Origin: Halorussus marinus
Lineage (GTDB): Archaea; Halobacteriota; Halobacteria; Halobacteriales; Haladaptataceae
DNA: 64,000 nucleotides
Direction of reading: 5' to 3'
Assembly (NCBI RefSeq): GCF_004765795.1
Contig: NZ_SBIV01000008.1
Location: forward strand, 1 to 64,000
In this document: piece by piece, positions 32,095 through 58,200 of the stretch
Layout of the letters: each line of letters opens with the position of its first letter
Numbering within the stretch: position 1 is the first letter of the stretch
Made by a program: the position numbers and the translations under genes
The notes under the pieces: model-generated
Seen by the model: only the letters and a program-made list of their open reading frames with translations
Told to the model about the DNA's origin: nothing
Database searches by the model: none

Positions 32095-32095
32095 G

Positions 32096-38115: not shown

Positions 38116-38157
38116 ACGTCTCGGCGTAACCGCCCGACCCGTATAAGGATTGTCGGT

Positions 38158-38913: not shown

Positions 38914-39057
38914 GGGAGTACCTCGGGCGGCCGCGGTCTTGAAAGCCGCCATTCGTCGCGTCCGGTCGGGCGACGGACTGGGCGCCGACCCCCTATCGAG
39001 CGGTCGAACGGGTCGACGGGCCACAGCACCTACGCCGCCCGAGCCCCTACCCACCGT

Positions 39058-39429: not shown

Positions 39430-39487
39430 GCCGACCCGCGACCCGGATTCCTACACGCTTTTATCTCGGGGATGCGTCGGCACGGGT

Positions 39488-39688
39488 ATGTACTGGTGGC
39501 GACTCCTCGCCGCGGTAGGCGCCGTCTCGGTTGCGTTCGTGGCGGTCGGTAGCCTCGTCAGACTCCTCGACACCGTGACCGCGAGCACCGCCGCGCTCGC
39601 AGTGATCGCGGTGGTCGCCGCGTGCGTGCTGGCGGCGGGCCGGCTGGGCTCGGGCCCCGCGAGTCGGCTATCGACCTCCTACTGGTAG
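39488..39688 (+). CDS. Small two-TM membrane protein
   Basis: Hydrophobic 66 aa ending STSYW; TATA-like TTTTAT at ~39459. Confidence 0.6.
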   Translation: MYWWRLLAAVGAVSVAFVAVGSLVRLLDTVTASTAALAVIAVVAACVLAAGRLGSGPASRLSTSYW

Positions 39689-39695
39689 GCTCGAC

Positions 39696-40328: not shown

Positions 40329-40383
40329 CGTCCGTCCGATAGGGAGTCGAGCGGGAAAAACCGGTCGAACGGCCCCGACCGAA

Positions 40384-40656
40384 TCAGTTCGCGTCCGCGT
40401 CGAGTGTGACGCCGTCCGCCCCTTCGGCCGGCTTGAACCGGATCGAGGCCACGCCCTGTCCGCCGACCCAGCCGTCGAACGCCACCAGTCCGTGCTCGGC
40501 CGCGGCGTCGAAAAGGTCCGAGAGATCGGTCCGGAACCCGTCGGCGTCGACGACGACCCTGACTGCCACCTCCTCGCCGTGACGGTCCACGTCGAACTCG
40601 CTCGCCGCCGCGAACGCGTCGAGACGATCAGCCGTCGATCGAGAATCGTCGCTCAT
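40384..40656 (-). CDS. Hypothetical protein
   Basis: Acidic 90-aa ORF from ATG 40656, TATA-like at ~40684. Confidence 0.55.
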   Translation of the reverse strand: MSDDSRSTADRLDAFAAASEFDVDRHGEEVAVRVVVDADGFRTDLSDLFDAAAEHGLVAFDGWVGGQGVASIRFKPAEGADGVTLDADAN

Positions 40657-40709
40657 CGAGTGGCGGTTCGTCGCCCCTCGGCATAAATCTGTAGCCCCGT
40701 CTCGGCGAC

Positions 40710-41300
40710 TCACTCCGAGCCGCCGGTGGCGCCCCCGTCGAGACACTCGACGACCGTATCGAACAGCGACCCGATCGTCCGGACCGCGTCCGAGTCGTGG
40801 GCCGACGGGTCGAGACAGACGTAGCCAGCGGCGCCGTGTTCGTCCAACAGCTGGCGGAAGTCGACGAGGAAATCGGCCGCCTCGTCGACCGGGCGGTGTT
40901 CGAGCAGCGCGGTCGCCGAGTCGAAGCAGACGACCGCGCGGCCGTCGTCGGGCCAGGCGTCGAGGTAGTCGGCGGCGGCGGCGCGGATCGCCGCTCCGTC
41001 GGTCGGATCCGCGACGCCCCGGACCGCGTTCGAGTCCGAACCGGCCGACGCCGCGGTCGATCGCATCCGGTCGCCGACGCCGACGACCCCGACGCGTCGC
41101 GGTCGCGTTCCGACGCGTGCGGTCCAGTCTTCGAGGAAGCCGGCGGGCCGATCGAACGTGACCCCGAGCACGTCGTCGGGATCGTCGTCGGCCAGCAGGG
41201 CGAACGGCGTTCGGTCGCGCTGCGACCGCCGGAAAACGAGCGTGTGGGGGTCGGCGTCGACGCAGGTCCGGATCAGTTTCGCCTCGTAGGCCGTCGTCAT
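40710..41300 (-). CDS. Degenerate RecA/KaiC-like protein (haloarchaeal, VCFDS motif)
   Basis: VVCFDSATALL...AHD...LFDTVVE; no Walker A. Confidence 0.7.
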   Translation of the reverse strand: MTTAYEAKLIRTCVDADPHTLVFRRSQRDRTPFALLADDDPDDVLGVTFDRPAGFLEDWTARVGTRPRRVGVVGVGDRMRSTAASAGSDSNAVRGVADPTDGAAIRAAAADYLDAWPDDGRAVVCFDSATALLEHRPVDEAADFLVDFRQLLDEHGAAGYVCLDPSAHDSDAVRTIGSLFDTVVECLDGGATGGSE

Positions 41301-41301
41301 G

Positions 41302-41622
41302 CTACGACTCGGAGACCGCGTTGCTGATTCGGACGGTCCCGTCGCTTCTCACGACGACGTCGAGCCCGCAGACGTCGAACCGAACGCTCGCCTCGCTCGA
41401 GGCCGTCGCGAACAGCTCGTCGAGCGCGTCGGGATCGACGCTCTCGTCGAGGGGGATCTTGGTGGTCATCGGATCGACGCCCGCGATCTCGGCGACCGCT
41501 CGGATGACGGTGCCGCTGACGGTCAGCGGGCCGTCGGGGTCGTGGTGAGCGTAGTACACGCCGGGTTCGTCGGCCGCTTCGACGAACCCCGAATCGTCGT
41601 CCCCCCAGTGACTCATTGACAT
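41302..41622 (-). CDS. HalOD1 output domain protein
   Basis: VIRAVAEIAGVDP...PLDESVDPDALDELF...VVVRSDG. Confidence 0.85.
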   Translation of the reverse strand: MSMSHWGDDDSGFVEAADEPGVYYAHHDPDGPLTVSGTVIRAVAEIAGVDPMTTKIPLDESVDPDALDELFATASSEASVRFDVCGLDVVVRSDGTVRISNAVSES

Positions 41623-41812
41623 CTTCCCGACCTCCCGGATTGGTTTCGATGTTCGCTTAATAAAACTATTGCTGTAACAACGGCGGGCGCGATCGACTCG
41701 TATCCACTCCATACCGGACGGTAATCCGAGTTTGTTCCGCGGTAGGTCCCACATATCAAAATAGTCGCCGCTCGTCGAACAGAACGTCGGCGATCCCGCC
41801 GACTACCGTACT

Positions 41813-41947
41813 ATGTCAGACACTACCCTACGCTCGGAGATCGCGGACCGACCGCGACTCGTCGGCGCACTGTTCACGATCACCCTCCTGCTCGCTCAGG
41901 TCGGCGGCGCGGCCGCGACCGGCGTGACCGCGACGTACGGCCCTTAG
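41813..41947 (+). CDS. 44-aa peptide 1 (xPR...hydrophobic...GP), not in ORF track
   Basis: Manual translation MSDTTLRSEIADRPRLVGALFTITLLLAQVGGAAATGVTATYGP*; stop overlaps stop of the convergent large gene. Confidence 0.8.
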   Translation: MSDTTLRSEIADRPRLVGALFTITLLLAQVGGAAATGVTATYGP

Positions 41948-43992
41948 AGGTCCAGAGAACTGCTCTGCCAGTACAGACATCGGTCTTTTTTGATCGGGTA
42001 CCGGTGCTGGTCCAAATACTCGCGAAGCTCCTCGCGAGAGAGCTGAAACTGTCCGATCACGCCGGGTGCGAGATAGTGTCGCTTTGCCCCGCCCACCATC
42101 GGTCTCGCCATCGTGCCCATCCCGCGCTCTCTGGGCACGAACGCGTCGATAGTGAGCTCGTACCCGTCGTCTGCGCCCGCGATCCGACAGAGCATCGAGA
42201 GCCCGTCGTCCTCCTGGACGACCGCGGCCCGCCCGTCGCCGACGACCGTGTAGTGACCGCCGACGACGCTCTCGGTGCGAGCGATCTCGATCGCGGCCCG
42301 GAGCGGGAATCCGAGATCGAGGAGCCGAGCCATCGTCTTCCCGACTCTGAGCGCGCCACTGTCGACGACATCGTTGAGCGTGACGACCCCGCCGACGCTT
42401 CCGGCCTCGACGAGCGCCATCCCCTGCTCGTAGGTCCGGCAGGCGTTCAGCAGGAACGCGCCGACGCCAACCGAGTCGATGTCGGTGGCGTCGAGGTAGC
42501 CGTCCGCACACTCGAAGCCCCGCTCGTCGACGTGGCCGATGTAGTGGAGGAAGTCGACGTCCTGCCCCAGAAGCCCTCGGAGTTCGCCGGTGGTCCGGTC
42601 TCGCCGGACCGTCACGTCGAACGGGAGCTCCGTCCGCGACCCGTAGGCCGCCCGGACCGCGTCGTTCTCCGCCCGCATCTCGGGGTCGTTGCCGACGACT
42701 GCGATCTCGATGTCGCCGGCGTCCGGCCGGCGATCGAGCTTGTTTCGGAACGCCGCCAGCGTCGCCTTCGTCGCCCCGATCGGCGTGCCGTCGCCGAACC
42801 ACGCCGATTCGACGGCGTCGGTCTCTGGGGGTCGGATCAGCCCGAGCGTGCCCGCGTCTCGGTCCGGCCCGCGGACGCGGTCGCCCCGGGTCGCGCCCAT
42901 GAAGTCGTCGAGGACGCCTTCCCGGAACGCCGCCGGGGAGACGCGCTCGCCCGTCGCGGGCCGGACGATCGCGAGGTCCCCGACCACGAACGGGAGCGCT
43001 TCGAGGCCGGTCGGGGAGGCGTCGACGTACGCCGCGAGGTTCCACCGCGGGACGTGGTCGGCGACGGTCTCGAACGGCACCGAGAGGTAGGCCCCGAGCC
43101 GGTCGGCAAGCGGTCGGTCGTACAGCGCCGCCAGATCGAGGTCGAGGCGGGGCGCCAGCGCCGCCCGCTCGTGGAGGTCCACCCGGTAGTAGCCCTCGGT
43201 CCGGACGAGGCAGTCGAACAGAAACGACTGCTTGAGCGCGCGCTCGACGCCCGTCTGGAGGTCAGGCTCGTCGAGCGCGAACTCCCGGTCGACACACCGG
43301 AGCCGGCCCGACTCGCCCGGGACGAGCTCGGCGCCGAGGTAGAACGCGAGCGGCGCGGCGATCGCGGCCGCGCGGTGGGTCGGCGGCACCTCGATCTCGA
43401 CGCCGGTGTCGGGCGTCGAGAGGCCGTCCGGGATCGACAGCGTCGCGCCGACCTCGACGGTCGGCGGGTGACCCCGGAGGGTCGGGTACGACCGCTCGGG
43501 CGAGGTGGTCTTGAGCGCCGAGCCGAGATACGACAGCGCCCGGAGCGCGTCCGCCGGGTCGGAGGTGATCGTCATCGTCGCCGCGGGCCGCTGGTGGTAC
43601 GACCGCGCGCCGACCAGCAGTTCGTCGGCGTCGAACGAGAACGCGATCCGATCGCCGTCGGCGCTCGCCGCCACCGCGCCCTCGACCCGGAAGTAGCACT
43701 TCACCGGCCCGTTGAGTTCGAGTTCGTAGCTGTCGGCCGGGAGTTCGATCTCTGCTCCCGGCCGGAGGGCGGCCACCATCCCGCCGTCCTCGCGACGGAC
43801 GTACGCGTCCGCGATGCCCGCGACCCTCACGGTCGCGGCGTCGACCGCGACCGCGGCGTCGACCGGGAAGTAGAACGCCGCCTCGTCGATCTCGGACGGG
43901 GCGACCGGACCGCCGGTCCGGAGCCGGTAGCGGCGCCGCTCGATGGGGTCGACGATGTCGAGTCCGTCGTCGCACGGTTCGAACGTAACCAC
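41944..43992 (-). CDS. Large haloarchaeal protein with C-terminal caspase/CHAT-like domain (paralog 1)
   Basis: KTTSPERSYPTLRGHPP; FLHYIGH...FLLNAC His/Cys motifs. Confidence 0.75.
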   Translation of the reverse strand: MVTFEPCDDGLDIVDPIERRRYRLRTGGPVAPSEIDEAAFYFPVDAAVAVDAATVRVAGIADAYVRREDGGMVAALRPGAEIELPADSYELELNGPVKCYFRVEGAVAASADGDRIAFSFDADELLVGARSYHQRPAATMTITSDPADALRALSYLGSALKTTSPERSYPTLRGHPPTVEVGATLSIPDGLSTPDTGVEIEVPPTHRAAAIAAPLAFYLGAELVPGESGRLRCVDREFALDEPDLQTGVERALKQSFLFDCLVRTEGYYRVDLHERAALAPRLDLDLAALYDRPLADRLGAYLSVPFETVADHVPRWNLAAYVDASPTGLEALPFVVGDLAIVRPATGERVSPAAFREGVLDDFMGATRGDRVRGPDRDAGTLGLIRPPETDAVESAWFGDGTPIGATKATLAAFRNKLDRRPDAGDIEIAVVGNDPEMRAENDAVRAAYGSRTELPFDVTVRRDRTTGELRGLLGQDVDFLHYIGHVDERGFECADGYLDATDIDSVGVGAFLLNACRTYEQGMALVEAGSVGGVVTLNDVVDSGALRVGKTMARLLDLGFPLRAAIEIARTESVVGGHYTVVGDGRAAVVQEDDGLSMLCRIAGADDGYELTIDAFVPRERGMGTMARPMVGGAKRHYLAPGVIGQFQLSREELREYLDQHRYPIKKDRCLYWQSSSLDL

Positions 43993-44071
43993 GTTTCACC
44001 TCGGAGCGAGCGTTACCAGCGGCCACTCGTTCGACCTCCAAAAGTCTCCTGTCGGCGGCCGGCGCCGGGCG

Positions 44072-45274
44072 CTACTCGTTTCGCGGGCTACTCGGGTGGT
44101 AGTCGGTGTCGTACTCGCCGGGCCGGTCGTCGAGCCGGTCGGGGTTGATCCGGCCGCTGAGCAACATGAAGTCGACGAGCGTCAGCGCCAGCATCGCCTC
44201 GACGACCGGGACGCCCCGGGGCGGAAGCACGGGGTCGTGGCGTCCGATGACCTTGGCCTCCTTCTGCTCGCCGGTCTCCCAGTCGACGGTGGTCTGGGTC
44301 TTGGGGATCGAGGTGGGCGCGTGGAGGGTGACCTCGCCGTAGATGGGCTCGCCCGTCGTGATCCCGCCCTGAATCCCGCCGTGGTCGTTCTCGACCGGCT
44401 TCGGGTCGCCGCGTTCTCGCGGTTCGTCACCGCTCGAATCCTCCGAGGGGCCCTGCGCCTCGCTATCGCCGAACTCCCAGTCGTCGTTTCGGTCTTTGCC
44501 GGTGTACTCGCGGGCCTCGCGGCCGAGTCCGAACTCGAAGGCGGTCGAGGCGGGCACGCTCATCATCGCCTGTCCGAGTCGGGCCTCCAGCGAGTCGAAC
44601 CGGGGCGCACCCAGCCCGCGCGGGACTCCGCGGGCCTCGAAGTAGATGGAGCCGCCGATAGAGTCGCCTTCGGTCTGGTACTCGTCGATGCGCTCGCGCA
44701 TCCGCTCGGCGGTCTCGGGGTGGGCACACCGCACTTCGTTGTCCTCGCTGTGTGCTTTGATCTCCTTGAACGACACCTCCGGCGCCTCGATGTCGCCGAT
44801 CTGGTTGACGTGGGCCTTGAGTTCGACGCCCGCCTCGGCGAGGATCTTGGTCGCGATCGCGCCCGCCGCGACCCAGTTGACGGTCTCGCGGGCCGACGAC
44901 CGGCCGCCCCCGCCCCAGTTTCGCGTGCCGAACTTCGCCGAGTAGGTGAAGTCGCCGTGGCTGGGCCGAGGCGCGGTGACGAACGGCTCGTATTTCTCCG
45001 ACTGGGCGTCCTTGTTCTCGATGACCATCCCGATCGGGGTGCCGGTGGTGTAGCCGTCCTGGACCCCGGACTTGATCGAGACAGCGTCGGGCTCTCCGCG
45101 GCTCGTCGTGATCATCGACTGGCCGGGCTTGCGCCGGTCGAGGTCGGCCTGCACGTCGTCTTCCGAGAGTTCGAGCCCCGCCGGACAGCCCGAGACGGTG
45201 ACGCCCATCGCGTCGCCGTGGCTCTCGCCGAAGGTGGTCACCTGAAACAGGCGTCCGAAGCTGTTGCCGTTCAT
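44072..45274 (-). CDS. aroC: Chorismate synthase
   Basis: TTFGESHG, RPSHGD, GGGRSSARET, GRHDP. Confidence 0.96.
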   Translation of the reverse strand: MNGNSFGRLFQVTTFGESHGDAMGVTVSGCPAGLELSEDDVQADLDRRKPGQSMITTSRGEPDAVSIKSGVQDGYTTGTPIGMVIENKDAQSEKYEPFVTAPRPSHGDFTYSAKFGTRNWGGGGRSSARETVNWVAAGAIATKILAEAGVELKAHVNQIGDIEAPEVSFKEIKAHSEDNEVRCAHPETAERMRERIDEYQTEGDSIGGSIYFEARGVPRGLGAPRFDSLEARLGQAMMSVPASTAFEFGLGREAREYTGKDRNDDWEFGDSEAQGPSEDSSGDEPRERGDPKPVENDHGGIQGGITTGEPIYGEVTLHAPTSIPKTQTTVDWETGEQKEAKVIGRHDPVLPPRGVPVVEAMLALTLVDFMLLSGRINPDRLDDRPGEYDTDYHPSSPRNE

Positions 45275-45369
45275 TGGCGGTTGTTGTGTGGGCGGCCTAT
45301 TTAGGGTTTGCAGAAGACGCAAGGCTGTGTCCGCGAGGCTCCGGAGTCAGACGGCCGGCTCGCATCTCG

Positions 45370-46038
45370 CTACCGCTCCTCGTCGGCCCGCGCCAGCCCG
45401 AGCGACTGTGCGGTCGGAAGGGTCCAGCCCAGCGACACCGCCACGCCGCGAATTCCGAGGGTCGCGACCGCACAGACCGTCGCGGCGGTGCTCCCCGTCG
45501 CCCCGACGGCCGTCGCCAGCCAGTAGGCGCATCCGCCGAGCACCGCACAACTCGCGTAGAAGTCCTCCAGGAGGATGAACGGCGAGCGGTCGAGCAGGAG
45601 GTCGGCGAACGCCCCGCCGCCGACCGCGTTGATCGTCGCGACCGCGACCACGCCGAACCCCGGGAGCCCGGCCTCGGTCGCGACGATGGCCCCCGTCGTG
45701 GTGAACGCCGCGAGCCCGACCCCGTCGGACAACAGCGCGACCGGGTGGTCGTCCGGCGAGTCGAGGACGACGCTCAGCCCGACCGCGAGTCCGACGCCCA
45801 ACAGGCCGAGACCGATCTCGCCGGGCGCCCTGAGCGCCAGCGGGACGCGGTTCACGAGGAGGTCTCTGGTCGCCCCGCCCGCGAACGCGGTCGCGAGCCC
45901 GACCACCGCGAGGCCGAACACGTCGAACTCCTCGCGGATCGCCTTCGTCGCGCCGACCAGCGCGAACGCGACCAGCCCGACCGCGTTCATCACGGCGAAC
46001 GGGTCGACGGCCGGGAGCGCTCCGAGAAACTGCGTCAC
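45370..46038 (-). CDS. TRIC/UPF0126 family membrane protein
   Basis: AFAGGATRDLL and AVGGGAFADLL repeats. Confidence 0.85.
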   Translation of the reverse strand: MTQFLGALPAVDPFAVMNAVGLVAFALVGATKAIREEFDVFGLAVVGLATAFAGGATRDLLVNRVPLALRAPGEIGLGLLGVGLAVGLSVVLDSPDDHPVALLSDGVGLAAFTTTGAIVATEAGLPGFGVVAVATINAVGGGAFADLLLDRSPFILLEDFYASCAVLGGCAYWLATAVGATGSTAATVCAVATLGIRGVAVSLGWTLPTAQSLGLARADEER

Positions 46039-46111
46039 TACCTCAGCCCACGAAAGCGAGCGTCTTGAGCGCTACGCATCCGTTTGCCCGGCTCGCGCCG
46101 GGGTCGGCGGG

Positions 46112-47428
46112 TCACTCCCGGTCGAGCGTCGCGCCGAGGTCGTACAGCACGTCGAAGAACTCCGGGAACGAGACGTCGACGTGTTGGGCGTCCGAGACGG
46201 TCGTCGGGCCCGAGGCCGCGAGCGCGGCGACCGACAGCGCCATCACGATCCGGTGGTCGCCGCGGCCGTCGACCGCGCCGCCGGTCAGCTCCGAGTCGCC
46301 GCCCCGAATCGTCAGCGTCTCGGCGGTCTCCTCGGTCTCGACGCCGAGGGTCGACAGCTCCTCGGCCATCGCGCTCACCCGGTCGGTCTCCTTGTACCTG
46401 ACGTGCTCGCAGTTCACGAGTCGGGTCTCGCCGTCGGCGACCGCGCCGAGCGTCGCGACCGTCGGCAGCAGGTCGGGGGTGTCGCCCACGTCGACCTCGA
46501 TGCCCGAGAGAGTCGAGCGCTCGACGGTCACGACGCCGTCCTCGCGGTTCCAGTCGACGTCGGCGCCCATCCGGTCGAGGACGCCCACGATCTCCGAGTC
46601 GCCCTGCGCGCTCGGGTACGCGCCCTCGACCCGGACCGCCTCGTCGGGGTCGGCCGCGATCGCGCCCGCCGCCAGCAGGTACGAGATCGACGAGAAGTCG
46701 CCCGGGACGTGATACTCCCCGTCGGTCGGCTCGTAGAACTGCCCGCCACCGACGCTGTAGGTCCCGCCGGCCGGCCCGGCCGCGTCGGGGCCGCGCTTCT
46801 CGGCGTCGATCCCGAACTCCTCGAGGAGTTCGAGGGTGATGTCGACGTACGGCGCCGACTTGAGTTCGGTTTCGAGTTCGATCTCGATCCCGTCGTCGGT
46901 GACCGCCCCCGCCATCAGCAAGGCGGTGACGAACTGCGAGGAGACGTCGCCGGGCATCGAGACGCGCCCGCCCGAGATCGGTCCCTCGACCACCAGCGGA
47001 GCCTGCCCGTTTCGCCGGGTGCTCTCGGCCCGGCCGCCGAGCGACTCGACGACCTCGAGCAGTGGACCGTGGGGGCGCGACCGGAGCGAGCTATCGCCGG
47101 TGAGGACGCTCGCGCCGTCGGCGAGCGCGGCCGCCGCGGTCACGAGTCGCATCGTCGTCCCGCTGTTGGCGCAGTCGACGACGTCGGCCGGCACGTCGGG
47201 ACGACCGTCGAAGCCGTCGACGTCGACGTGGTCCGACTCGCGGGTGACGGCCCCGCCGAAGGCCTCGACCGCGCGCATCGTCGCCTCCGTGTCGGCGCTC
47301 ACGAGCGGATCGTACACCAGCGCGCCCCCGGAGTAGCCGGCGGCGAGGATGGCGCGGTGGGTGTAGCTCTTCGAGGAGGGCGCCCGGGCGGCCCCCGAGA
47401 GCGTCGACGGCGAGAGTTCCACGTTCAT
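46112..47428 (-). CDS. aroA: 3-phosphoshikimate 1-carboxyvinyltransferase
   Basis: [35 protein letters not shown]. Confidence 0.96.
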
Positions 47429-47498
47429 GCGCGACCAGAGGACCCGGTCCCGTATCAGGATACCGGACGTGACAGGTCTGGCGCCCGCCGACCGGAGC

Positions 47499-48425
47499 TC
47501 ACTTGCGGTCGAGCCGCGAGAGGCCGTGCCAGATCGCGTCGACCAGCCTGTCTTCGCCCTCCCCGTCGGCGTCGTCCCACCCGCGGGCGAGCGCGTCCTC
47601 CAGCACCGAGAGGTCGTGGTTCTCGAAGTTGTTCATCCCGCGGAACGACTCCAGCGCCTCGCGTCCGGCCTCGCCGAAGTCGGCGGTCGGCTCGCCGTCG
47701 TAGAACCCGAGGTCGGCGAGCGTCTCGGAAACGGTCTCGGCGGTCGCGCCCGACAGCTCCCGGCAGTCGTCGGGCGCCTCGCGTTCGAGCAGGGTCACGT
47801 CGTACACCTTGAACGCGCGTTCGAGCTCGTCGATCGGCGACTCGTGGTCGTCGACCCGCACGTCGATCCACCGGTCGTTGTTGCCCGCGTACCCGCCCTC
47901 GGCCTTCGCGACGTAGAGGGCGGCGCTCTGCTCGCCGCGCTTGTCGCCGCCCGCCGCGTTGCCCGCGTGGAGGGCCTCGATGAGCCGCTCGGGGAGGCCG
48001 CCGTCGGCCGACTCGAACGCCTCGCCCATCGCCTCGACCGTCTCGCGGTTCTCGAGGATGTTGCCCTGCGCGGTGTAGGTGTCGCCCTGCACGTCGCCCG
48101 CGTAGTCGAGACACTCCTCGCCGGTGAACGCGGCCACCGAGCCGTCCTGCCCGACGACGCCGACCTGTCGCTGGGGGGCTTGGTCGTCGCCGTCGGTGAG
48201 TTCGTCGACGACCTCGGCCGCCGAGCGGCCCTCCCGAAGCAGGTCGAGACCGTCGGGCCCGTACGCGACGTTTGCGAAGCTCTGGGTGGCGACCGCGCCG
48301 GCGTCGGCGCTGGCGAACGGGACCACCGCGCCGACCGAGACGAACTTCGACTGGACCGCGACGCCGACCGCGTCGGTCTCGGGGTCGCGGGCGACGATCG
48401 AGAACGTGGCTGGTCGTGGTTCCAT
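47499..48425 (-). CDS. DUF1028 family (Ntn-hydrolase-like) protein
   Basis: [36 protein letters not shown]. Confidence 0.88.
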
Positions 48426-48471
48426 GCGACACGACTGGCACCCGACCAGAAAAAGCGTTCGCGCGGCGGCG

Positions 48472-48936
48472 TCAATCACCGGTTTCGCCGTCCCTCGCCC
48501 GCTTTCGCGCGGTCAGCGGCTGGCGGCGGGCCAGCTCGCAGTCGAACGCGGGATGCTCGGCGAAGTGGTGGACGAGCATGTGGCGCCGGCCGCCGGTCAG
48601 GCCGGGCCGACCCACGTCCTCGGCGGTGAACGTTCGAGGCAGTCGGTCGTAGAACCGACGCAGTTCCTCGAAGCTCTCGAACACCTTCCGGTGGCCCGAC
48701 GAGTCCGCTCGCGAGCGCGCGACGACGTAGCTACCGTCCTCGCGGTGCTCGCCCGCCGTCTGCTCGAACGCCCGGCGCTCGGTCAGCGCCTCGCCGAGCG
48801 CGGTCCGAAGCCGATCGGCCTCGGCTCTGGTGAGGTCGTGCGTCTCGCCCGCGAGCGTGACCGCGACGCGGTCGGCGTCGACGTTACGTTCGGCGCGGAA
48901 TTTCTCGATCAGCCGCCGGCTGGCGACTTCCCCTAT
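48472..48936 (-). CDS. Conserved hypothetical protein; start uncertain, possibly non-canonical
   Basis: Frame open from ~48969 to 48472 (GEHREDGSYVVARS...FTAEDVG...HFAEHPAFDC); first canonical start only at GTG 48684. Confidence 0.6.
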   Translation of the reverse strand: MGEVASRRLIEKFRAERNVDADRVAVTLAGETHDLTRAEADRLRTALGEALTERRAFEQTAGEHREDGSYVVARSRADSSGHRKVFESFEELRRFYDRLPRTFTAEDVGRPGLTGGRRHMLVHHFAEHPAFDCELARRQPLTARKRARDGETGD

Positions 48937-49021
48937 CCTCCGGGTCCCCGGGCGACGAAGGTCGTGGCGTCATGTGAGAGTCGATACGCACCGCCCCAAC
49001 ATAAGCGTCGGGGCGGTCCGG

Positions 49022-49273
49022 TCACCGCCGGGTGACCAGCAGGACGGCGACGACGACGTTGTACACCGCGAGCCCGGCCGCGATCGCGCCGACCGAGAGC
49101 CCGACGTAGACGGTCGCCAGCATCGCGGCCTCGGTCGCGGTCTCGGCGAGCGCGACTGCGAACGCGAGCAGGCCGCCGGCCACGGCGGCTACCGGCGGGC
49201 CGAACTCCCGCCAGTAGGTTTCTGAGACGGGGAGGCGGAGCCTGACGACCGACTCCTCGGAATCCCGAGGCAT
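49022..49273 (-). CDS. Small membrane protein
   Basis: Two hydrophobic segments; TATA-like CTTATG upstream. Confidence 0.55.
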   Translation of the reverse strand: MPRDSEESVVRLRLPVSETYWREFGPPVAAVAGGLLAFAVALAETATEAAMLATVYVGLSVGAIAAGLAVYNVVVAVLLVTRR

Positions 49274-49384
49274 GCGCGCTACCTCTCACCCCGCGGACAT
49301 AAGTCTTCAGGCGCCGGAAGGGCGTGGACGGGAGCGAGCCGCGAGTCCGCGGTCGTTTTGTGCTCCCGGGCCGTACCCGCGGCC

Positions 49385-50107
49385 ATGAAAGTCCGCGGCG
49401 AGCGCGAGTGCAAGGACTGTGGGGCCCGGTGGTCCTACTACGAGACCGGGAGCGTGGCGTGCCCGTCGTGCGAGAGCCTCCGGAGCGTCGGCGTCGACGA
49501 CGAGCGGCGCCTCCACACCGACGCGCCGGTCGAACTCGACCTGAGCGACGCCCGGGCGGCGCTCGACGACGAGTCGCTCCGCGAGACCGCAGACCGGGCC
49601 GGCGAGGTCGCCCGCGAGTACGTCCGCAAGCGCGGGTTCGTCGACGCCGGGGAGCTACGCGCGCTCGACGACCGCTATCTGACGGCCCACGAACTCCGAC
49701 ACGCCGCCGACGCGATCGGTCGGCGGATGGACCCAAGCGACGAGGAGGAGTGGTACTTCCTCGCGCTCCTGCGTGGCGCCGACGCCGCCGAGCCCGACCG
49801 GCCCGCGCCCGACGAGGTGCCCGCGTCGATGCGGGGCGTGCGGGGACTGGCGTACGCGAACGCCGTGCGCGAGTACCGCCGAGAGATGCTCGACTGGCTC
49901 GACGAACAGCCCGAGACCCGGGACCGATCCGTCCTCGAAACGCTCGGCTCGCACCTCAAGCGTGTGCGGGCGCTCGACGGCGAGGTCGACCCCACCGACG
50001 CCGAGGCGCTCGTGGCCGCGGCCCGCGACGCGTCCCGATTCCTGCGCGAGGACGACGCCGAGGCGCTCGCCAGCGCCCGCGAGCGCCTCGACCGACTCGC
50101 CGAGTAG
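49385..50107 (+). CDS. N-terminal zinc-ribbon protein
   Basis: MKVRGERECKDCGARWSYYETGSVACPSC. Confidence 0.75.
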   Translation: MKVRGERECKDCGARWSYYETGSVACPSCESLRSVGVDDERRLHTDAPVELDLSDARAALDDESLRETADRAGEVAREYVRKRGFVDAGELRALDDRYLTAHELRHAADAIGRRMDPSDEEEWYFLALLRGADAAEPDRPAPDEVPASMRGVRGLAYANAVREYRREMLDWLDEQPETRDRSVLETLGSHLKRVRALDGEVDPTDAEALVAAARDASRFLREDDAEALASARERLDRLAE

Positions 50108-50153
50108 CGCCGGCCGGCGAACGCTTTTGTTACTCGGTGCCATACCATCGACC

Positions 50154-50540
50154 ATGGCGACCGACGACACCTCGCGGCTGGGGTGGGCGTTCAGACTCCT
50201 GTTTCTCGTCCTCGTGGTCGTCCCGGTCGCGGTTCCGTTCGCGGACGCCGTCGAGGCGCTCCCGGTCGCGCTCGATACCGCCCTGCTCGCGCGACTGACG
50301 GGGGCCGGAGCGGTGCTCGCGGTCCTCGCGGTGCTCGTCACACAGAAGCGCCGGGCTCGGGGCCGGGAAGTCACAGACTCGCCCGAACACCGACGCGACC
50401 GCGAGCCCGAAGGCACCGGCGAGGTGTACGCGCCGTACGCCTACAACAACCAACAGCGAGCGCGCCGGGAGGGCGAGCGCATCCGCGAGCGGGCGGCCGA
50501 GGTCGCCGAGGCCGACCGCGAGGGCCGCGACCGGCCGTAG
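50154..50540 (+). CDS. Hypothetical membrane protein
   Basis: Two TM segments then a charged tail. Confidence 0.55.
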   Translation: MATDDTSRLGWAFRLLFLVLVVVPVAVPFADAVEALPVALDTALLARLTGAGAVLAVLAVLVTQKRRARGREVTDSPEHRRDREPEGTGEVYAPYAYNNQQRARREGERIRERAAEVAEADREGRDRP

Positions 50541-50545
50541 GCCGT

Positions 50546-51439
50546 TCAGGGCAGGTCGACCGCGACGCCCGACTGCCGGCTCGCGGCCTTGACCGTGTTG
50601 TACAGCAACATCGCGCGGGTCATCGGGCCGACGCCGCCCGGGACGGGCGTGATCGCGCCCGCGGTCCCGGTCGCCGACTCGAAGTCCACGTCGCCGACCA
50701 GTTCGTAGCCCTTCTCGGTGTCGGCTTCGACGCGGTTGACGCCCACGTCGATCACGGTCGCGCCCTCCGTGAGCATCGAGCCGTCGATCATCTCCGGGAC
50801 CCCGGCGGCCGCGATCACCACGTCGGCGCGTCGGGTGTGGGCCGCGAGGTCCTCGGTCCGGGAGTGACACACCGTGGTCGTCGCGTTGCCAAGCGGCGCC
50901 TTCTGGACGAGGAGGTTCGCCATCGGTTTGCCGACGATATCCGATCGCCCGACTACGACCGCCTCGGCGCCTTCGGTCTCGACGTCGGCGGCTTCGAGGA
51001 GCTTCTGGACGCCGTGGGGCGTGCAGGGCTTGAACCGGGCGTCGCCGGCGACCATCCGGCCGACGTTCTCGGGGTGGAAGCCGTCGACGTCCTTCTCGGG
51101 GTCGATCGACCGGAGGACCCGCCGGTCGTCGACGTGGTCGGGCACCGGCATCTGGACGAGGATCCCGTGGACCTCGGGGTCGTCGTTCAGCTCCTCGACG
51201 GTGTCGTACAGCTCCTCGGCGGGCGCGTCGGCGTCGAGTTCGACGTTGACGCCCTCGATGCCGACCTCCTCGCAGTCGCGCTGTTTCATCGAGACGTAGG
51301 TCTCGCTGGCGGGGTCGTCGCTCATCAGGACGGTCGCGAGCCCGGGACGCTCGCCCGCGTCGGCGAGCGCCTCGATGCCCTCTCGAAGTTCGTCGCGGAT
51401 CTCGGCGGCGACGGCGTCCCCGTCGATTATCTCGGTCAT
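50546..51439 (-). CDS. folD: Methylenetetrahydrofolate dehydrogenase/cyclohydrolase
   Basis: KDVDGFHP, PCTP, GRSDIVGKP, TPVPGGVGPMT. Confidence 0.96.
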   Translation of the reverse strand: MTEIIDGDAVAAEIRDELREGIEALADAGERPGLATVLMSDDPASETYVSMKQRDCEEVGIEGVNVELDADAPAEELYDTVEELNDDPEVHGILVQMPVPDHVDDRRVLRSIDPEKDVDGFHPENVGRMVAGDARFKPCTPHGVQKLLEAADVETEGAEAVVVGRSDIVGKPMANLLVQKAPLGNATTTVCHSRTEDLAAHTRRADVVIAAAGVPEMIDGSMLTEGATVIDVGVNRVEADTEKGYELVGDVDFESATGTAGAITPVPGGVGPMTRAMLLYNTVKAASRQSGVAVDLP

Positions 51440-51528
51440 TACGTATCGGATCGGCGCCGAGCCATTTCAACCCTCGGGTTCGTGCGTATTTCCCGGGTGG
51501 AAAATCAGTTTCTATGCACGACCGTGGA

Positions 51529-52776
51529 TTACTCGTACAGCGGGTTCGCCTCGCAGAGCGCTTTGACGTCCTCGGCGACCTCGGCTTTGACGTCCTCGTC
51601 GTCGACGTTGTTGACGACCCGGGCGATGAGGTCGCCCACGTACCGGCAGTCGTCCTCGTCGAAGCCCCGGGTCGTGAGTGCGGGGGTTCCCGCCCGGATG
51701 CCGCTGGTGACGAACGGCGAGCGCGTCTCGCCGGGGACGGTGTTGGCGTTCAGGACGATGCCCACGTCTTCGAGGGCCTCCTCGGCCTGCTTGCCGGTCA
51801 CGTCCTCGTGGGACTCCCGGAGGTCGACCAGCACGAGGTGGGTGTCGGTGCCCCCAGAGACCAGCGAGAAACCGTCTTCCTGGAGGCTCTCGCCGAGCGC
51901 CTCGGCGTTCTTGACCGTCTGGGCGGCGTACTCGTCGAACTCGGAGTCGAGCGCCTCTCGGAAGCCGACCGCCTTGCCAGCGATGTTGTGCAGGAGGGGC
52001 CCGCCCTGCATCCCCGGGATGACGGCGGAGTCGATGGCGTCGCCGTACTCCTCGTCGGCGAGCACGATGCCGCCCCGACCCGCACGGATCGTCTTGTGGG
52101 TCGACCCGGTCACGAAGTCCGCGATCCCGACCGGCGAGGCGTGCTCGCCCGACGCCACCAGCCCGGTGATGTGGGCCATGTCCGCGAGGTGGTAGGCGTC
52201 GGCGGCGTCGGCGGCCGCCTGGACGCGCTCCCACTCGACCTCGCGGGGGTACGCCGAGTAGCCCGAAACGACGATGTCGGGGTCGAATTCCTCGGCGTGC
52301 TCCCGGAGGGCGTCGTAGTCGACGTACCCCGTCTCGGGGTCGACCTCGTACTGCTCGACCTCGTAGAGCTGGCCGGTGAAGTTGGCGTGGTGGCCGTGGC
52401 TGAGGTGGCCGCCGTGGGTCAGATCGAGCGAGAGGATCTTGTCGCCGGGGTCGAGCATCGCGAAGTAGACCGCCATGTTCGCCTGCGAACCCGAGTGGGG
52501 CTGGACGTTGACGTACTCGGCGCCCCAAAGCTCCTTGGCGCGCTCGATGGCGAGGTTCTCGACCGTGTCGACGTGTTCACAGCCGCCGTAGTAGCGCGAA
52601 CCGGGGTAGCCCTCGGCGTACTTGTTCGTGAGGACGCTCCCCTGGGCTTCCATCACGGCCTCGCTGACGTGGTTCTCGCTCGCGATCATCGCCAGCGTGT
52701 CGCGCTGGCGGTCGACTTCAGCCTCGAGGGCGTCTGCTACCTCCGGGTCGGCGGCACGGACGCGGTCGTACTCCAT
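51529..52776 (-). CDS. glyA: Serine hydroxymethyltransferase
   Basis: IASEN, NKYAEGYPG, GGHLSHG, STHKT. Confidence 0.97.
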   Translation of the reverse strand: MEYDRVRAADPEVADALEAEVDRQRDTLAMIASENHVSEAVMEAQGSVLTNKYAEGYPGSRYYGGCEHVDTVENLAIERAKELWGAEYVNVQPHSGSQANMAVYFAMLDPGDKILSLDLTHGGHLSHGHHANFTGQLYEVEQYEVDPETGYVDYDALREHAEEFDPDIVVSGYSAYPREVEWERVQAAADAADAYHLADMAHITGLVASGEHASPVGIADFVTGSTHKTIRAGRGGIVLADEEYGDAIDSAVIPGMQGGPLLHNIAGKAVGFREALDSEFDEYAAQTVKNAEALGESLQEDGFSLVSGGTDTHLVLVDLRESHEDVTGKQAEEALEDVGIVLNANTVPGETRSPFVTSGIRAGTPALTTRGFDEDDCRYVGDLIARVVNNVDDEDVKAEVAEDVKALCEANPLYE

Positions 52777-52879
52777 GCACGAAATCGGTATGTCCCGGCG
52801 TATAAGCTTACCTTTCGCGGCGCTTCTGGAGGACGACAAAACTATAAACGACGCGTGGGATACGATTCGTGACGCAGAC

Positions 52880-54985
52880 ATGCTCGACTGGGAGGAGACG
52901 GACTCGGGGTTGCGGGTGCTCGACAGCACGAAGACGGAGGTGCGAGTAGACGCCGACGACTGGGAGCCGGCCGACGCGGTCGACGCCATCGAGCGCCCGC
53001 TGGACGAGCGCCTCGCGGGCTACGCCTCCGAAATCCGGCTCCCGCCCGGGCTCGTCTTCGCCCACGGCGGGAAGGCCGACGCCGAGTACACCCACGGCAG
53101 TGACGCCGACCCGCTGGAACTCCCCGACGACGAGTACCTGCTGGACGTCACTCTCAACATCAAGACGTACTTGAAGTTCTCGGGCCCCGCGACCGTCTGG
53201 AAGTCCGAGGACTACGACCACCTGTACGTCTCGTTCCCCGAGCGTACGCTAGTGACGTTCGGATTCCGGAGTCACCACGAGGAGCCGATCGGAACCGTCA
53301 CCGTCCCCCGGACTCCCGCCGGGGTCGCGACGGCGGTCACCTACTCGTCGGCGGCCCACAAGACCACCGGCCCGGACCGGTCGTTTCCGAACCTCCGGGG
53401 TCACCCGCCCCGGATCGCGTTCGGCGACCGAACCGAGATTCCCGACGGGCTCGCTCGGGCCCGCCCCGAGGTCGGGATCGAACTGGTGGTCCCCGACGAG
53501 TTCGCGTCCGTCTACGTCGCGGCCCCGCTGGCCCACTACCTGCAGGCCGAACTCACCGTTGCCGACAGATCCAGACCGGTATTGCGCGCGCCGTCGGCCG
53601 GCGTCGATCGGGAGTTCTCCCCGTTGCCCGCGTTCCAACACGAGGTCGCCGACACGCTTCGTCGGGTGTTCTTCCTCGACTGTCTGGTCCGGAACGCCGG
53701 GGAGTTCAGCTGGGAACTCGCCGAACTCGACCTGCTCGAAGAGTTGGCGCTCGACCCCGCGGCGACTTACGAGGCGACGCCGGCCGAACAACTCGGGACG
53801 TATCTCGACGCCGACTACGGGCGCATCGACGGCGATCTCCCGGCGTGGCACCTCGCGGTTCACGTCGCCGACGAGCCGGCCAACGCCGGCGTGCTCCCGT
53901 ACCTGCTCGACTCGCTGAGTCTCGTCTACCGACCCGAGTCCACGGAACTCGACAAGAGCGAGCTCCTCAGCCGGTCGATCGACGACTTCTATCGGTCGGA
54001 CGCCGCCGACGCGACGGCGGCGTCGCCGACGGCCGCCGAGGGGTTCGCCCGGTCGACCGCGGGCGAGGTCGAGTCGGTCGACCGGCGCGACCCGGTGCTC
54101 CACGACGCTCGCATCAGCGGCTGGCTGGCCGACGGGGTGCCGATCGACGTGTTCAACGCGGTGCCCGACGCCTACGAGAACCGGTTCAAGTACCTCGACG
54201 AGACGACCGGTGACATCGACGTGACGGTCGTCCTCAACGACGAGGAGATGGCCGACGAGCGCGCGACCGTCTCGGAGATCTACCGGGAGCGAAGCGAGGA
54301 CCTCCCGATCGATCTGACCCTCCACGAGCGGCTCACGACCGGGGAGCTCGCCGACGTCTTCGAGTCGTCGCGGGACTTCGTCCACTACATCGGCCACTGT
54401 GAAGAGGACGGACTGCGGTGTCGGGGCGGGAACCTCTCGGTCGCCGACATCGGCGAGAGCAACGTCCAGACGTTCTTCTTGAACGCCTGTGGCTCCTACT
54501 ACGAGGGCCGAGAGCTCGTCAGAAAGGGGAGCGCCGCCGGCGCGGTCACGTTCACCAAGGTGTTGAACAAGCAGGCCGCGACGGTCGGGGCGGCGTTCGC
54601 CCGACTGCTGATCCACGGGTTCAGCATCCAGCGTGCGCTCCAGTTCGCCCGCCGCCGGATCATGATGGGGAAAGACTACGCCGTCGTCGGCGACGGCACG
54701 CACACGCTGACCCAGACCGACAACCGGTATTCGAGCGCCGGCCGCATCGAGGAGCGCGACGGCGCGTTCGAGGTGACGTACAACCAGCTCGCGTCCCGGT
54801 CGATCGGCGGGGGCTATCAGGTGTATCTCCCCGACCGCGACGAGATGCGCCTCCACGGCAACGAGTCGACGTTCACGCTCGACACCGACGAACTCCGATC
54901 GTTCCTCGGTCGGGCCGAGGCGCCGTTCGTCTACGACGGCGACCTCTACTGGTCGGACGAACTCGCGAAAATAGTGACCGAGTAG
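52880..54985 (+). CDS. Large haloarchaeal protein with C-terminal caspase/CHAT-like domain (paralog 2)
   Basis: KTTGPDRSFPNLRGHPP; FVHYIGH...FFLNAC; clearly homologous to 41944..43992. Confidence 0.75.
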   Translation: MLDWEETDSGLRVLDSTKTEVRVDADDWEPADAVDAIERPLDERLAGYASEIRLPPGLVFAHGGKADAEYTHGSDADPLELPDDEYLLDVTLNIKTYLKFSGPATVWKSEDYDHLYVSFPERTLVTFGFRSHHEEPIGTVTVPRTPAGVATAVTYSSAAHKTTGPDRSFPNLRGHPPRIAFGDRTEIPDGLARARPEVGIELVVPDEFASVYVAAPLAHYLQAELTVADRSRPVLRAPSAGVDREFSPLPAFQHEVADTLRRVFFLDCLVRNAGEFSWELAELDLLEELALDPAATYEATPAEQLGTYLDADYGRIDGDLPAWHLAVHVADEPANAGVLPYLLDSLSLVYRPESTELDKSELLSRSIDDFYRSDAADATAASPTAAEGFARSTAGEVESVDRRDPVLHDARISGWLADGVPIDVFNAVPDAYENRFKYLDETTGDIDVTVVLNDEEMADERATVSEIYRERSEDLPIDLTLHERLTTGELADVFESSRDFVHYIGHCEEDGLRCRGGNLSVADIGESNVQTFFLNACGSYYEGRELVRKGSAAGAVTFTKVLNKQAATVGAAFARLLIHGFSIQRALQFARRRIMMGKDYAVVGDGTHTLTQTDNRYSSAGRIEERDGAFEVTYNQLASRSIGGGYQVYLPDRDEMRLHGNESTFTLDTDELRSFLGRAEAPFVYDGDLYWSDELAKIVTE

Positions 54986-54991
54986 TCGAGA

Positions 54992-55126
54992 TTACGGGCC
55001 CGTCGACGCTCCCGCCGACGCGTTCGTTCCGACCTCTACCACGACCGTTCCGGCCGCGGTGAGCGCGAACGCGGCGTTCAGCGCGCGCGGATTATCCATC
55101 AACCACTGTCGAAGTTTGGCTCGCAT
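54992..55126 (-). CDS. 44-aa peptide 2 (xPR...hydrophobic...GP), not in ORF track
   Basis: Manual translation MRAKLRQWLMDNPRALNAAFALTAAGTVVVEVGTNASAGASTGP*; convergent with paralog 2, 6 nt gap. Confidence 0.75.
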   Translation of the reverse strand: MRAKLRQWLMDNPRALNAAFALTAAGTVVVEVGTNASAGASTGP

Positions 55127-55434
55127 GGCTTGTGCAGTGTTATACAGTGACACTACTTTATTGTTTCGGGGTGACTATACGTTAGTATGATACGATTGCG
55201 CTGAGAAACCGACTCCTAACCGGCGGCCGTTCGATCCCTCGATACCTGAACCGGACCGCCGGTGGTCGATTCCGGTTCGCCGGCCCACACGAACCGACGA
55301 CGTTCACGGAACTCGGGCCGCGACCGGCGTCCGATTAGAATTATCCGATCTGCGACTTCATATCCGGAAATAATCCGTGATTTCCCCCCGTTACTAACGT
55401 TAAAATTAAGTAGGGTAAGAGCCTTTGTGCGCGT

Positions 55435-56259
55435 ATGGAAACTGGATCGAATTTACTCGACCGAGAGATAGCTGAAATCCTCCGGGCGGTTATCGATGAC
55501 GCTCCGGAGTCGCTGCTCGTAATTAATCCGTCTGCGGACGCGATCGAGGATCTCGTCTCCGTCGCCACCGACTACGACGGCGAGCTCCCGACGCTTCGAC
55601 TCCTCGCCGAGGAAGGTAGCCTCAAGGACGTGATGGACGACTTCATCGTCGCGAGCAACGCCGCCGACCTCATCGACGAGGGCGCGCTGTCGCTTCGGAC
55701 CAGCGACGAAGTGCCGAGCAACTCCCTGCTCGTCACCGACGAGGTCGTCGTCGCGCTGGTGACGGCCGACGACCACGTCGGCGGCCTCACCGCGACCGAC
55801 GAGGCGTTCGTCGGCGACGCGTTCGATTCGTACACCGACGAGTGGGACGCCGCCGACGAGTTCTCGCTTCGCACGCCCCCGATCACCCGAGTGCGAGAGA
55901 CCCTCGGCGAGGAGATCAGCCCCGACGCCCAGGAGGACTTCGACGCGGTGCTCTCCTCGATGGAGACGGCCCGCGGGGACGGCGACGGCCTCGACGAAGT
56001 CACGATCAGCCTCCTCGTCGCGGCGAAAAACGAGGCCCTGCTGTACGACATCAGCAAGTGGGGCGAGGACGTCGGCATCGCGAGCAAGGCCACCTTCTCG
56101 CGCACCAAAACGAAGCTCGAAGACATGGGGCTCATCGGCACCGAGAAGGTCCCCATCGACGTGGGACGCCCGCGTCTCCGTCTCAAGCTCGCGAACGACG
56201 ACCTCCGCGACGCCGACACCGACCAGCTCGCGGGCGTCGCCCAGAGCCTGCTTCACTGA
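55435..56259 (+). CDS. tbsP: Transcriptional regulator TbsP-like (C-terminal HTH)
   Basis: LLYDISKWGEDVGIASKATFSRTKTKLE...PIDVGRPRLRL. Confidence 0.75.
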   Translation: METGSNLLDREIAEILRAVIDDAPESLLVINPSADAIEDLVSVATDYDGELPTLRLLAEEGSLKDVMDDFIVASNAADLIDEGALSLRTSDEVPSNSLLVTDEVVVALVTADDHVGGLTATDEAFVGDAFDSYTDEWDAADEFSLRTPPITRVRETLGEEISPDAQEDFDAVLSSMETARGDGDGLDEVTISLLVAAKNEALLYDISKWGEDVGIASKATFSRTKTKLEDMGLIGTEKVPIDVGRPRLRLKLANDDLRDADTDQLAGVAQSLLH

Positions 56260-56363
56260 CGCCGCCCGAGCACGGAGGCGCTTCGCTCTCGGTTCGGTTT
56301 TTCTCGCGTCACCTCCGAGCGATAGCACCGGTCTTTTCGGTCCCCGGGTCCGTCCGTCGACCC

Positions 56364-58100: not shown

Positions 58101-58200
58101 GCAAGTCGACTCCAGACGTCGGGGAGTTTTATCGTCCCGCCCGTTGTGGCTGGTAGCGTATGGCACGGATCGTTCTGCGCCGGCCGCCGAAGGGGGACCG

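Follow-up and report, generated by a model that had tools for sequence, protein, structure and literature searches.

Why would a haloarchaeon keep genes for 44-residue proteins that end in Gly-Pro tail to tail with genes for large caspase-like proteins? The question is raised by a 64,000-nucleotide (nt) stretch of DNA from Halorussus marinus (GCF_004765795.1, contig NZ_SBIV01000008.1, positions 1..64,000), in which this arrangement occurs twice; we refer to the whole stretch as the window. Our analysis establishes that the large gene and the micro-protein gene are a genuine cognate pair with a wide distribution and a translated micro-protein, and modeling suggests that the large protein is probably an active clan CD protease. 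A preliminary description of this DNA had reported two large paralogues, each convergent with a Gly-Pro-ending open reading frame (ORF) of 44 amino acids (aa), and all four ORFs lie where it had placed them. Large 1 (type 1; 41944..43992, − strand, 682 aa) converges with peptide 1 (41813..41947, + strand, 44 aa), and the stops of the two overlap by 4 nt. Large 2 (type 2; 52880..54985, + strand) gives 701 aa from the ATG at 52880, which is nested in a longer TTG-started frame. It converges with peptide 2 (54992..55126, − strand), the stops being separated by 6 nt; the ATG of this small gene yields 44 aa and an alternative GTG nine codons upstream would yield 53.

The two modules, ~9 kilobases (kb) apart, are ancient paralogues and not the product of a recent duplication. 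Large 1 and large 2 share 34% identity over 706 columns (E 3e-97), and BLASTP returned no alignment between peptides 1 and 2. The peptides nonetheless share a layout: [D/N]-P-R, with its P-R around residue 14, then a hydrophobic stretch, a tail of small residues, and Gly-Pro at the end. Two additional large paralogues are encoded elsewhere in the genome, one each on contigs C1 and C6, and each of the four large genes faces a convergent Gly-Pro-ending ORF of exactly 44 aa. The tails differ among the four pairs.

ORFs this small demand independent evidence that they are genes. Peptide 1, in which the N-terminal segment carries D-R-P-R and is followed by a hydrophobic helix, a small-residue tail, and the Gly-Pro end, passes the Pfam model DUF7503 (PF24335; E 3e-15, 55.9 bits against a gathering cut-off of 27), as do two further strong copies in the genome (71.3 and 69 bits). 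Peptide 2 belongs to a diverged sister class with D-N-P-R, a weakly hydrophobic stretch, and a Gly-Pro end. It shares the layout and terminus of the family and scores below the cut-off (13.1 bits, E 0.074, with its N-terminal half alone aligned), and it most resembles the small ORF of locus L058. NCBIfam gave no match for any of the four module proteins. In a codon test on 51 pairs of closely related small ORFs, 616 differences fell at third positions against 217 and 163 at the first two, and synonymous and nonsynonymous codon differences stood at 481:302 in frame compared with 91:707 and 69:708 in the shifted frames.

The Haloferax volcanii member of the family, HVO_1270 (sequence P0124), extends this evidence to expression. 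In the H. volcanii small-proteome study, HVO_1270 is leaderless and is scored "Translated, nice coverage" by ribosome profiling (Ribo-seq), with 2217 reads per kilobase per million (RPKM) and a translation efficiency (TE) of 22 (PMC10117724, Supplementary Table 5B row 84). The same source records its detection by mass spectrometry (MS) and its position between HVO_1269 and HVO_1271 in the orientation "><<" (PMC10117724). That orientation, together with named Haloferax loci where this small ORF lies directly against the large gene, leads us to infer that HVO_1269 is the large gene. HVO_2860, HVO_2861, and HVO_2862 have no entry in the covered part of the supplement. Taken together, the Pfam family, the codon test, and the Ribo-seq and MS data for the H. 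volcanii orthologue show that the small ORFs are real genes.

We asked how faithfully the two genes keep company. A profile of the large protein retrieved 80 loci, 79 with an intact large frame and 78 with at least 200 nt of downstream flank. Under a neutral definition of a partner (opposite strand, ATG start, at least 30 aa, stop −30 to +150 nt from the large stop), a convergent ORF ending in Gly-Pro was present at 71 of the 78 loci; the background frequency of such an end is 1.3% (139 of 10,633 frames of at least 30 codons). Gly-Pro-ending partners at three more loci (L037, at +161 nt, L032, and L072) bring the total to 74 of 78. The remainder comprises two family members ending in G-T and G-I (L017 and L075), one Gly-Pro-ending but GTG-started frame that lacks a hydrophobic helix (L026), and one locus with no partner, whose large gene appears disrupted (L074). 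The stop-to-stop gap ranges from −16 to +161 nt. DUF7503 is passed by 70 of 73 small-ORF candidates, the misses being two Haloplanus loci (L038 and L062) and the peptide-2-like L058.

The same association holds at the level of genomes. Among 151 genomes of the class Halobacteria, DUF7503 occurs in 121 and the large protein in 133; 18 genomes have neither gene, 12 have the large gene only, and none has DUF7503 only. At least 136 of the 150 DUF7503 matches listed are convergent with a large-gene match and within 500 nt of it (median gap 23.5 nt), a lower bound since the comparison covered 150 of the 348 large-gene matches. Outside the class, a sister lineage with small genomes of 40–43% GC carries the large gene in all four genomes sampled, and three of the four loci have a DUF7503-like convergent frame ending in R-G-P, one of them without an ATG start. 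Remote homologues of the large protein were also found in 11 of 15 genomes of a second outside lineage, with no such convergent partner in the 10 loci examined. Judged from these sequence comparisons, the class of micro-protein tracks the subfamily of large protein, and the two genes are inherited together.

Two large genes stand in tandem at L072:3001-7532 and at G125:C22:34962-39616, and in the former a Gly-Pro-ending partner is found for the first large gene only, within the covered flank. A type-1 module complete with its DUF7503 partner resides on a 500-kb plasmid of Haladaptatus halobius (unnamed4; L013).

If the pair is cognate, which part of the micro-protein matters? In an alignment of 59 family members the sole invariant columns are G43 and P44, with M1, P14, F21, and G31 each conserved in at least 90%. 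All four glycine codons and all four proline codons are used at this terminus, and selection therefore acts on the residues and not on the nucleotides. The rest of the protein varies in kind. Type-2 partners with a helix have H-P-R, the hydrophobic helix, and a longer tail with an S-T-G-P end, while soluble type-2 partners have an amphipathic stretch at the N terminus and finish in a conserved ...A-K-R-V-S-T-Y-G-G-P. The Haloplanus partners (L038 3747-3881, − strand; L062 5064-5357, − strand) lack a hydrophobic helix altogether and carry tandem 13-residue units of the form ...A-D-G-N-G-G-A-V-S-G-P-Y-T..., each ending S-G-P, two in L038 and six in L062; this repeat form resembles a multi-copy precursor in its sequence. 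Across transmembrane, soluble, and tandem-repeat forms, the Gly-Pro end is the only universal feature. Its retention in all of them points to the tail, and above all to Gly-Pro, as the common functional element and indicates that some lineages can do without the helix. Between close relatives the ratio of synonymous to nonsynonymous differences is similar in the tail (179:120) and the head (302:182), which suggests that the tail is about as constrained as the head and diverges slowly, with no visible diversifying pressure.

The large proteins are far less transparent to profile methods. Neither Pfam nor NCBIfam has a model that reaches threshold on them: against Pfam CHAT (PF12770, cut-off 24 bits), large 1 is unmatched and large 2 reaches 12.5 bits (E 0.097, residues 451–600). 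Half of the family, 29 of 58 members, matches CHAT weakly (E ≤ 1; lowest E 0.0014), and a profile search against PDB sequences produced chance-level matches only (E ≥ 0.36). Structure prediction was more informative. An AlphaFold2 model of large 1 built from a 58-sequence alignment has a predicted local distance difference test score (pLDDT) of 89.4 and a predicted TM-score (pTM) of 0.91, and divides into a beta-sandwich (residues 1–135), a middle alpha/beta lobe, a caspase/CHAT-like lobe (~420–595), and a C-terminal beta domain. The best PDB matches obtained with Foldseek are the separase protease domain (E 5.6e-7), a SAVED-CHAT filament, gingipain R, the TPR-CHAT protease of Craspase, DdvA, and caspases, with E values for separase, SAVED-CHAT, and gingipain between 5.6e-7 and 3e-6. 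An independent all-against-representatives structure alignment returned the gingipains RgpB (Z 19.2, residues 317–641; 252 aligned, root-mean-square deviation 3.3) and Kgp (Z 18.5), separase (5fc2; Z 18.4, residues 177–594), SAVED-CHAT (8tl0; Z 17.7), DdvA (Z 15.7), and legumain, metacaspases, and caspases (Z 10–11).

The model also places a plausible active site. H483, H487, N516, and C518 are invariant in alignments of 12 and of 58 sequences, and in the model H483/H487 and C518 sit at the ends of successive strands (479–485 and 510–516), the layout of clan CD. The putative catalytic segment, from H-Y-I-G-H (H483, H487) to L-N-A-C (C518), maps by residue number to 42439..42534 on the − strand. 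The front half of the protein is distinctive. A search of the Atlas with residues 1–400 returned only clusters of the protein's own archaeal family, the middle lobe holds an invariant K-T-T...R-S-x-P-x-L-R-G-H-P-P motif, and the best structural match of the first 135 residues (Z 8.4) may reflect only a common arrangement of the beta-sandwich. On the strength of the model, the large protein is probably an active clan CD protease of the type represented by CHAT proteins, separase, and gingipains, its front half being peculiar to the family.

Several proposals of the preliminary description therefore hold up. It had called the large proteins caspase/CHAT-like, in agreement with the modeled fold (Z 17.7–19.2 to gingipains, separase, and SAVED-CHAT) and the invariant His and Cys. 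It had also taken the tiny ORFs for genes, as the Pfam family, the codon test, and the H. volcanii Ribo-seq and MS data confirm, and had paired each with its neighbor as cognate, in line with their co-inheritance and with the tracking of subfamily by micro-protein class. Adjacent Gly-Pro-ending ORFs proved general, the peptide is translated, and its codons are conserved.

Large 2 leads to a regulatory connection. It defines a separate orthologous group of 88 members at ≥40% identity (40–55%), present in 85 of the 151 genomes. A plausible ATG-started, Gly-Pro-ending ORF accompanies 24 of 30 type-2 loci and none was found in four; by eye, none of 29 type-2 loci of other genomes coincides with a DUF7503 match among the 150 listed of 162. 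In the window, peptide 2 diverges from a tbsP orthologue (55435..56259, + strand; Pfam TbsP_N E 7.5e-59, HTH_TbsP_C E 5.7e-57). A tbsP orthologue lies just past the small ORF in 28 of the 30 type-2 loci, compared with 1 of 80 type-1 loci, and these orthologues are 67–76% identical to that of the window (100% in the window's own locus). In the 151-genome sample, 82 of the 88 type-2 large genes have a TbsP_N match 87–992 nt downstream on the same strand. Because TbsP_N occurs in 148 of the 151 genomes, the presence or absence of TbsP is uninformative as a test of co-occurrence. The 308-nt spacer between peptide 2 and tbsP (55127..55434) probably holds the promoters of both genes. It contains an AT-rich, TATA-like element 30–36 nt upstream of the peptide 2 ATG and one weak match, at 55401 with two mismatches, to the published TbsP motif WGAAATWAASTC, which has four matches with up to two mismatches in the 64 kb.

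Published work on TbsP (HVO_2861) provides a second connection, through the other paralogue. There, TbsP is described as needed for adhesion, normal shape, and motility, and the HVO_1270 promoter is peak 3 of the chromatin immunoprecipitation sequencing (ChIP-seq) data, with a score of 628 and a log fold change of 1.72 for HVO_1270 in the tbsP deletion (PMC11023807, Table 3); the paper makes no mention of a protease, of CHAT, or of synteny. Type-2 synteny and published binding at the other paralogue are thus two independent lines that tie the micro-protein genes to TbsP. As a separate observation, one genome (G146) has 7 large-protein matches and 15 TbsP_N matches, both families being expanded together.

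What, then, might the micro-protein do for its neighbor? The interpretation we favor, at a probability of roughly 45%, is that it serves as the dedicated partner of the protease, acting through its Gly-Pro tail, with its supply set by TbsP; the sign of the effect, as inhibitor, activator, or substrate, is left unfixed. A cytoplasmic clan CD cysteine protease of ~690 aa with an intact His/Cys pair would recognize a short tail ending in Gly-Pro-COOH, and that tail might inhibit the enzyme or occupy it as a pseudosubstrate, activate it as a ligand, or be cut as its substrate. The [N/H]-P-[R/K] motif and the hydrophobic helix of most lineages would hold the micro-protein, and through it the protease, at the membrane. 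By setting the supply of micro-protein, TbsP would turn the pair into a transcriptionally gated proteolytic switch, and several pairs that do not cross-react could coexist in one genome. This interpretation builds on the fold with its conserved dyad, the pairing, the invariance of Gly-Pro, translation, and the transcription of the small gene apart from the large one, with input from TbsP; to these it would add contact between the two proteins, a role for the tail, tethering at the membrane, and the logic of the switch. Two further considerations speak for it. The fold matches enzymes that are under the control of small bound partners or prodomains, namely separase and gingipain, and the tail could plausibly meet the protease in the cytoplasm, since helix-less micro-proteins have no export signal and the modeled large protein is globular.

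A number of observations pull the other way. The genes are convergent and not co-transcribed, and such adjacency is weaker evidence than an operon. If the helix inserts with its N terminus inside and its C terminus outside, the tail would lie outside the cell, away from a cytoplasmic protease. The internal S-G-P units of the repeat form have no free carboxylate unless they are first cut, and the very high translation of HVO_1270 would suit a precursor no less than a stoichiometric partner. No DUF7503 match was found in 12 of the 133 genomes with the large gene, although diverged partners escape this model. The expression change of HVO_1270 in the tbsP deletion has a false discovery rate of <0.06 only (PMC11023807, Table 3), and the TbsP motif has no match upstream of peptide 1 and is not clearly upstream of either window peptide. 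The favored interpretation can be carried further, to a set of orthogonal, micro-protein-gated caspase-like proteases in which the TbsP-controlled Gly-Pro proteins of 44 residues, or peptides cut from them, would switch the cognate CHAT-type protease on or off and in this way link cell shape, adhesion, and motility to signals of nutrients and density. This is a long extrapolation that we think is probably wrong; were it true, archaea would have a proteolytic switch under peptide control for which no counterpart has been described.

There are competing accounts. Cleavage after a basic P1 residue is common among clan CD proteases, and the Lys-Arg immediately before V-S-T-Y-G-G-P in the soluble type-2 partners invites the idea that the large protein is a maturase, freeing a short Gly-Pro-ended peptide from a leader/core micro-protein in the manner of a pro-peptide or of a ribosomally synthesized and post-translationally modified peptide (RiPP). 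A conserved leader followed by a variable tail of fixed length, the 2 to 6 tandem tail units of Haloplanus with their likeness to a multi-core precursor, the four pairs with different tails in one genome, and the very high level at which HVO_1270 is translated in the data covered would all fit. Yet no residue ahead of the tail is conserved across the family, leaving no common P1 site; the flanks of 79 loci have no recurrent exporter or modification enzyme, the YcaO gene near module 2 being in 150 of 151 genomes and not module-specific; and the tails are not diversifying among close relatives. We regard this account as unlikely, if with a real chance of being right. Quite improbable, to our mind, is a related scheme in which the micro-protein is an exported pheromone whose Sec-type signal peptide is removed by signal peptidase, freeing a Gly-Pro peptide of ~9 residues that would be re-imported to gate the protease, as in RRNPP systems. 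The n-h-c layout and A-x-A-like residues ahead of the tail suit it, the active C terminus and convergent small gene recall some Rgg/SHP pairs, and TbsP affects density- and nutrient-linked behaviors in the covered text (PMC11023807). Against this, the supposed signal is the best-conserved part of the micro-protein, which is unusual for signal peptides, the helix-less forms of two lineages could not be exported this way, and neither an oligopeptide permease nor a TPR receptor is linked, as judged from the flanks of the 79 loci and from the fold matches. A signaling or precursor-processing system had been the proposal of the preliminary description, along with divergent tails as specificity determinants. 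Such a system is possible at low odds, with no conserved cleavage site, exporter, importer, or modification enzyme found alongside the pair, and the tails show, among close relatives, purifying selection similar to that on the head and no sign of hypervariability; its account of the fold, of the genes, and of their pairing is supported.

The two genes could be neighbors for another reason, such as shared 3′ ends or terminators, or have separate roles in one TbsP-controlled process, as might be read from their convergent, non-operonic arrangement, the breadth of the stop gap (−16 to +161 nt), and the partners undetected in 4 of 30 type-2 loci and for the second large gene of the L072 tandem. 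We give this slim odds in view of adjacency that is kept throughout the class and in the sister lineage, of micro-protein classes that track large-protein subfamilies, and of the absence of genomes with DUF7503 alone. Alternatively, the ORF might act in cis. Pro-stop endings slow termination in bacteria, and a stalled ribosome at Gly-Pro-stop, or overlapping antisense 3′ ends, might tune the facing protease gene. The invariance of Gly-Pro right before the stop, stops that abut or overlap in many loci, the lack of a T-run on the large 1 strand until past peptide 1, and the high ribosome-to-RNA ratio listed for HVO_1270 (TE 22) agree with such a role. Arrest peptides, however, conserve the residues nearest the stop, which are here the least conserved except for Gly-Pro; the repeat forms carry Gly-Pro internally; the N-terminal motif shows strong amino-acid conservation; and, going by the MS entry, the protein is stable enough to be detected, all of which makes cis action very improbable. 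Equally hard to credit is a membrane peptide akin to a type I toxin, held in check by antisense transcription from the facing gene or degraded by its product. In its favor, the micro-protein is small and hydrophobic, has a single helix, and is encoded opposite a convergent gene that overlaps its own, but HVO_1270 is heavily translated in growing H. volcanii according to the supplement, non-hydrophobic forms exist, the gene is chromosomal, class-wide, and conserved in its N-terminal motif, and the loci lie among housekeeping genes.

Returning to a protease with a dedicated micro-protein partner, we compared the module with known systems. Peptide 1 and 70 of the 73 tested partners are members of DUF7503, which Pfam catalogs as haloarchaeal small proteins and a "Family of unknown function" and for which the NCBI annotation reads "DUF7503 family protein"; the model does not capture peptide 2, the soluble partners of type-2 genes, or the repeat forms of Haloplanus. 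With CHAT and other clan CD proteins (SAVED-CHAT 8tl0, Csx29/Craspase, DdvA, separase, gingipains), which are gated by a bound ligand, partner, or prodomain, the large protein shares the two-lobed caspase-like fold and the invariant His and Cys at strand ends. It differs in scoring below the Pfam CHAT threshold and in having no TPR, SAVED, or CRISPR context, and the module differs in that residues 1–400 are confined to the family and the partner is a 44-aa, Gly-Pro-ended micro-protein. The likeness to separase and securin lies in the protease fold over residues 177–594 and in a small, separately expressed, cognate partner; securin is a longer, disordered, soluble protein without a Gly-Pro end, and comparable binding in the haloarchaeal pair is a proposal. 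RRNPP systems (Rap/Phr, Rgg/SHP) likewise place a small, hydrophobic, precursor-like ORF with a variable C terminus beside a cytoplasmic protein, and multi-core RiPP precursors carry tandem repeated tails of the kind seen in one lineage. The haloarchaeal module differs from both in lacking a TPR receptor, permease, exporter, or modification enzyme across the 79 flanks, in having its leader-like part most conserved, and in being archaeal. Among the listed fold matches there are no TPR chains except those of TPR-CHAT proteases (Csx29), and no transporter gene recurs in the flanks of the 79 loci. By analogy, then, the module would work most like a partner-gated clan CD protease, such as separase with securin or a ligand-gated CHAT protein, with a micro-protein that has no counterpart.

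Existing annotations of the large protein read hypothetical, "CHAT domain-containing," or "caspase family." Literature searches on DUF7503, D4GX86, and haloarchaeal CHAT or caspase proteins with a small protein found no paper describing the pair, and those on HVO_1269/HVO_1270 found a table entry only. New here are the two-way pairing statistics and their reach into a sister lineage, a partner signature that comes down to a C-terminal Gly-Pro across four structural forms, the division of the modules into two ancient types, and the connection to TbsP. To our knowledge, archaeal caspase-like proteases have no assigned cellular role and most archaeal micro-proteins no known partner; the module gives both a concrete, testable context. 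The pair is class-wide, with the large gene in 133 of the 151 sampled Halobacteria genomes and often in several copies, has one invariant candidate recognition feature, the C-terminal Gly-Pro, and is represented in a genetically tractable model organism by HVO_1270 and the presumed large gene HVO_1269. Its connection to TbsP, which regulates shape, adhesion, and motility, was unexpected. Should the micro-protein turn out to gate or feed its protease, a new mode of clan CD protease control would come to light, and the TbsP network might gain a missing effector arm.

The surroundings of the modules add detail. Downstream of tbsP, starting 84 nt past it, lies a gene for a YcaO-domain protein (56343..58100, + strand; Pfam E 1.4e-48), which we considered as a peptide-modifying partner and rejected: its orthologue is found in 150 of 151 genomes, some of which lack the module, and it keeps company with tbsP and not with the protease. 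By eye, the YcaO orthologue is next to tbsP in at least 12 genomes (such as G144, G037, G061, G094, and G095) and away from it in at least 5 (such as G088, G033, and G007). Beside module 1 are genes for a HalOD1 protein (41302..41754, − strand; Pfam E 4.7e-19) and a DUF7504 protein (40710..41300, − strand; Pfam E 1e-21), two ORFs in the window compared with one fused protein elsewhere (L084:1867-2913). A HalOD1(-DUF7504) ORF stands beside the large gene in 35 of 79 type-1 loci, usually directly upstream on the same strand, and the Haloferax modules neighbor a HalX response regulator and a TrmB paralogue.

Between the window's modules lie genes for chorismate synthase, EPSP synthase, a DUF1028 protein, FolD, and serine hydroxymethyltransferase. 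GC content along the window runs from 0.61 to 0.73, and the nearest named relatives of large 1 are from Halorussus. On the strand of large 1, no T-run occurs from its stop until beyond peptide 1 (41757..41765 and 41813..41947 of the window), and its transcript may, to judge by these letters, extend antisense across the entire peptide 1 gene. In two other genomes (G137:C4 and G111:C1), a single contig carries both a type-1 and a type-2 module at a distance of ~40 kb, compared with 9 kb in the window, and the two types may be loosely linked.

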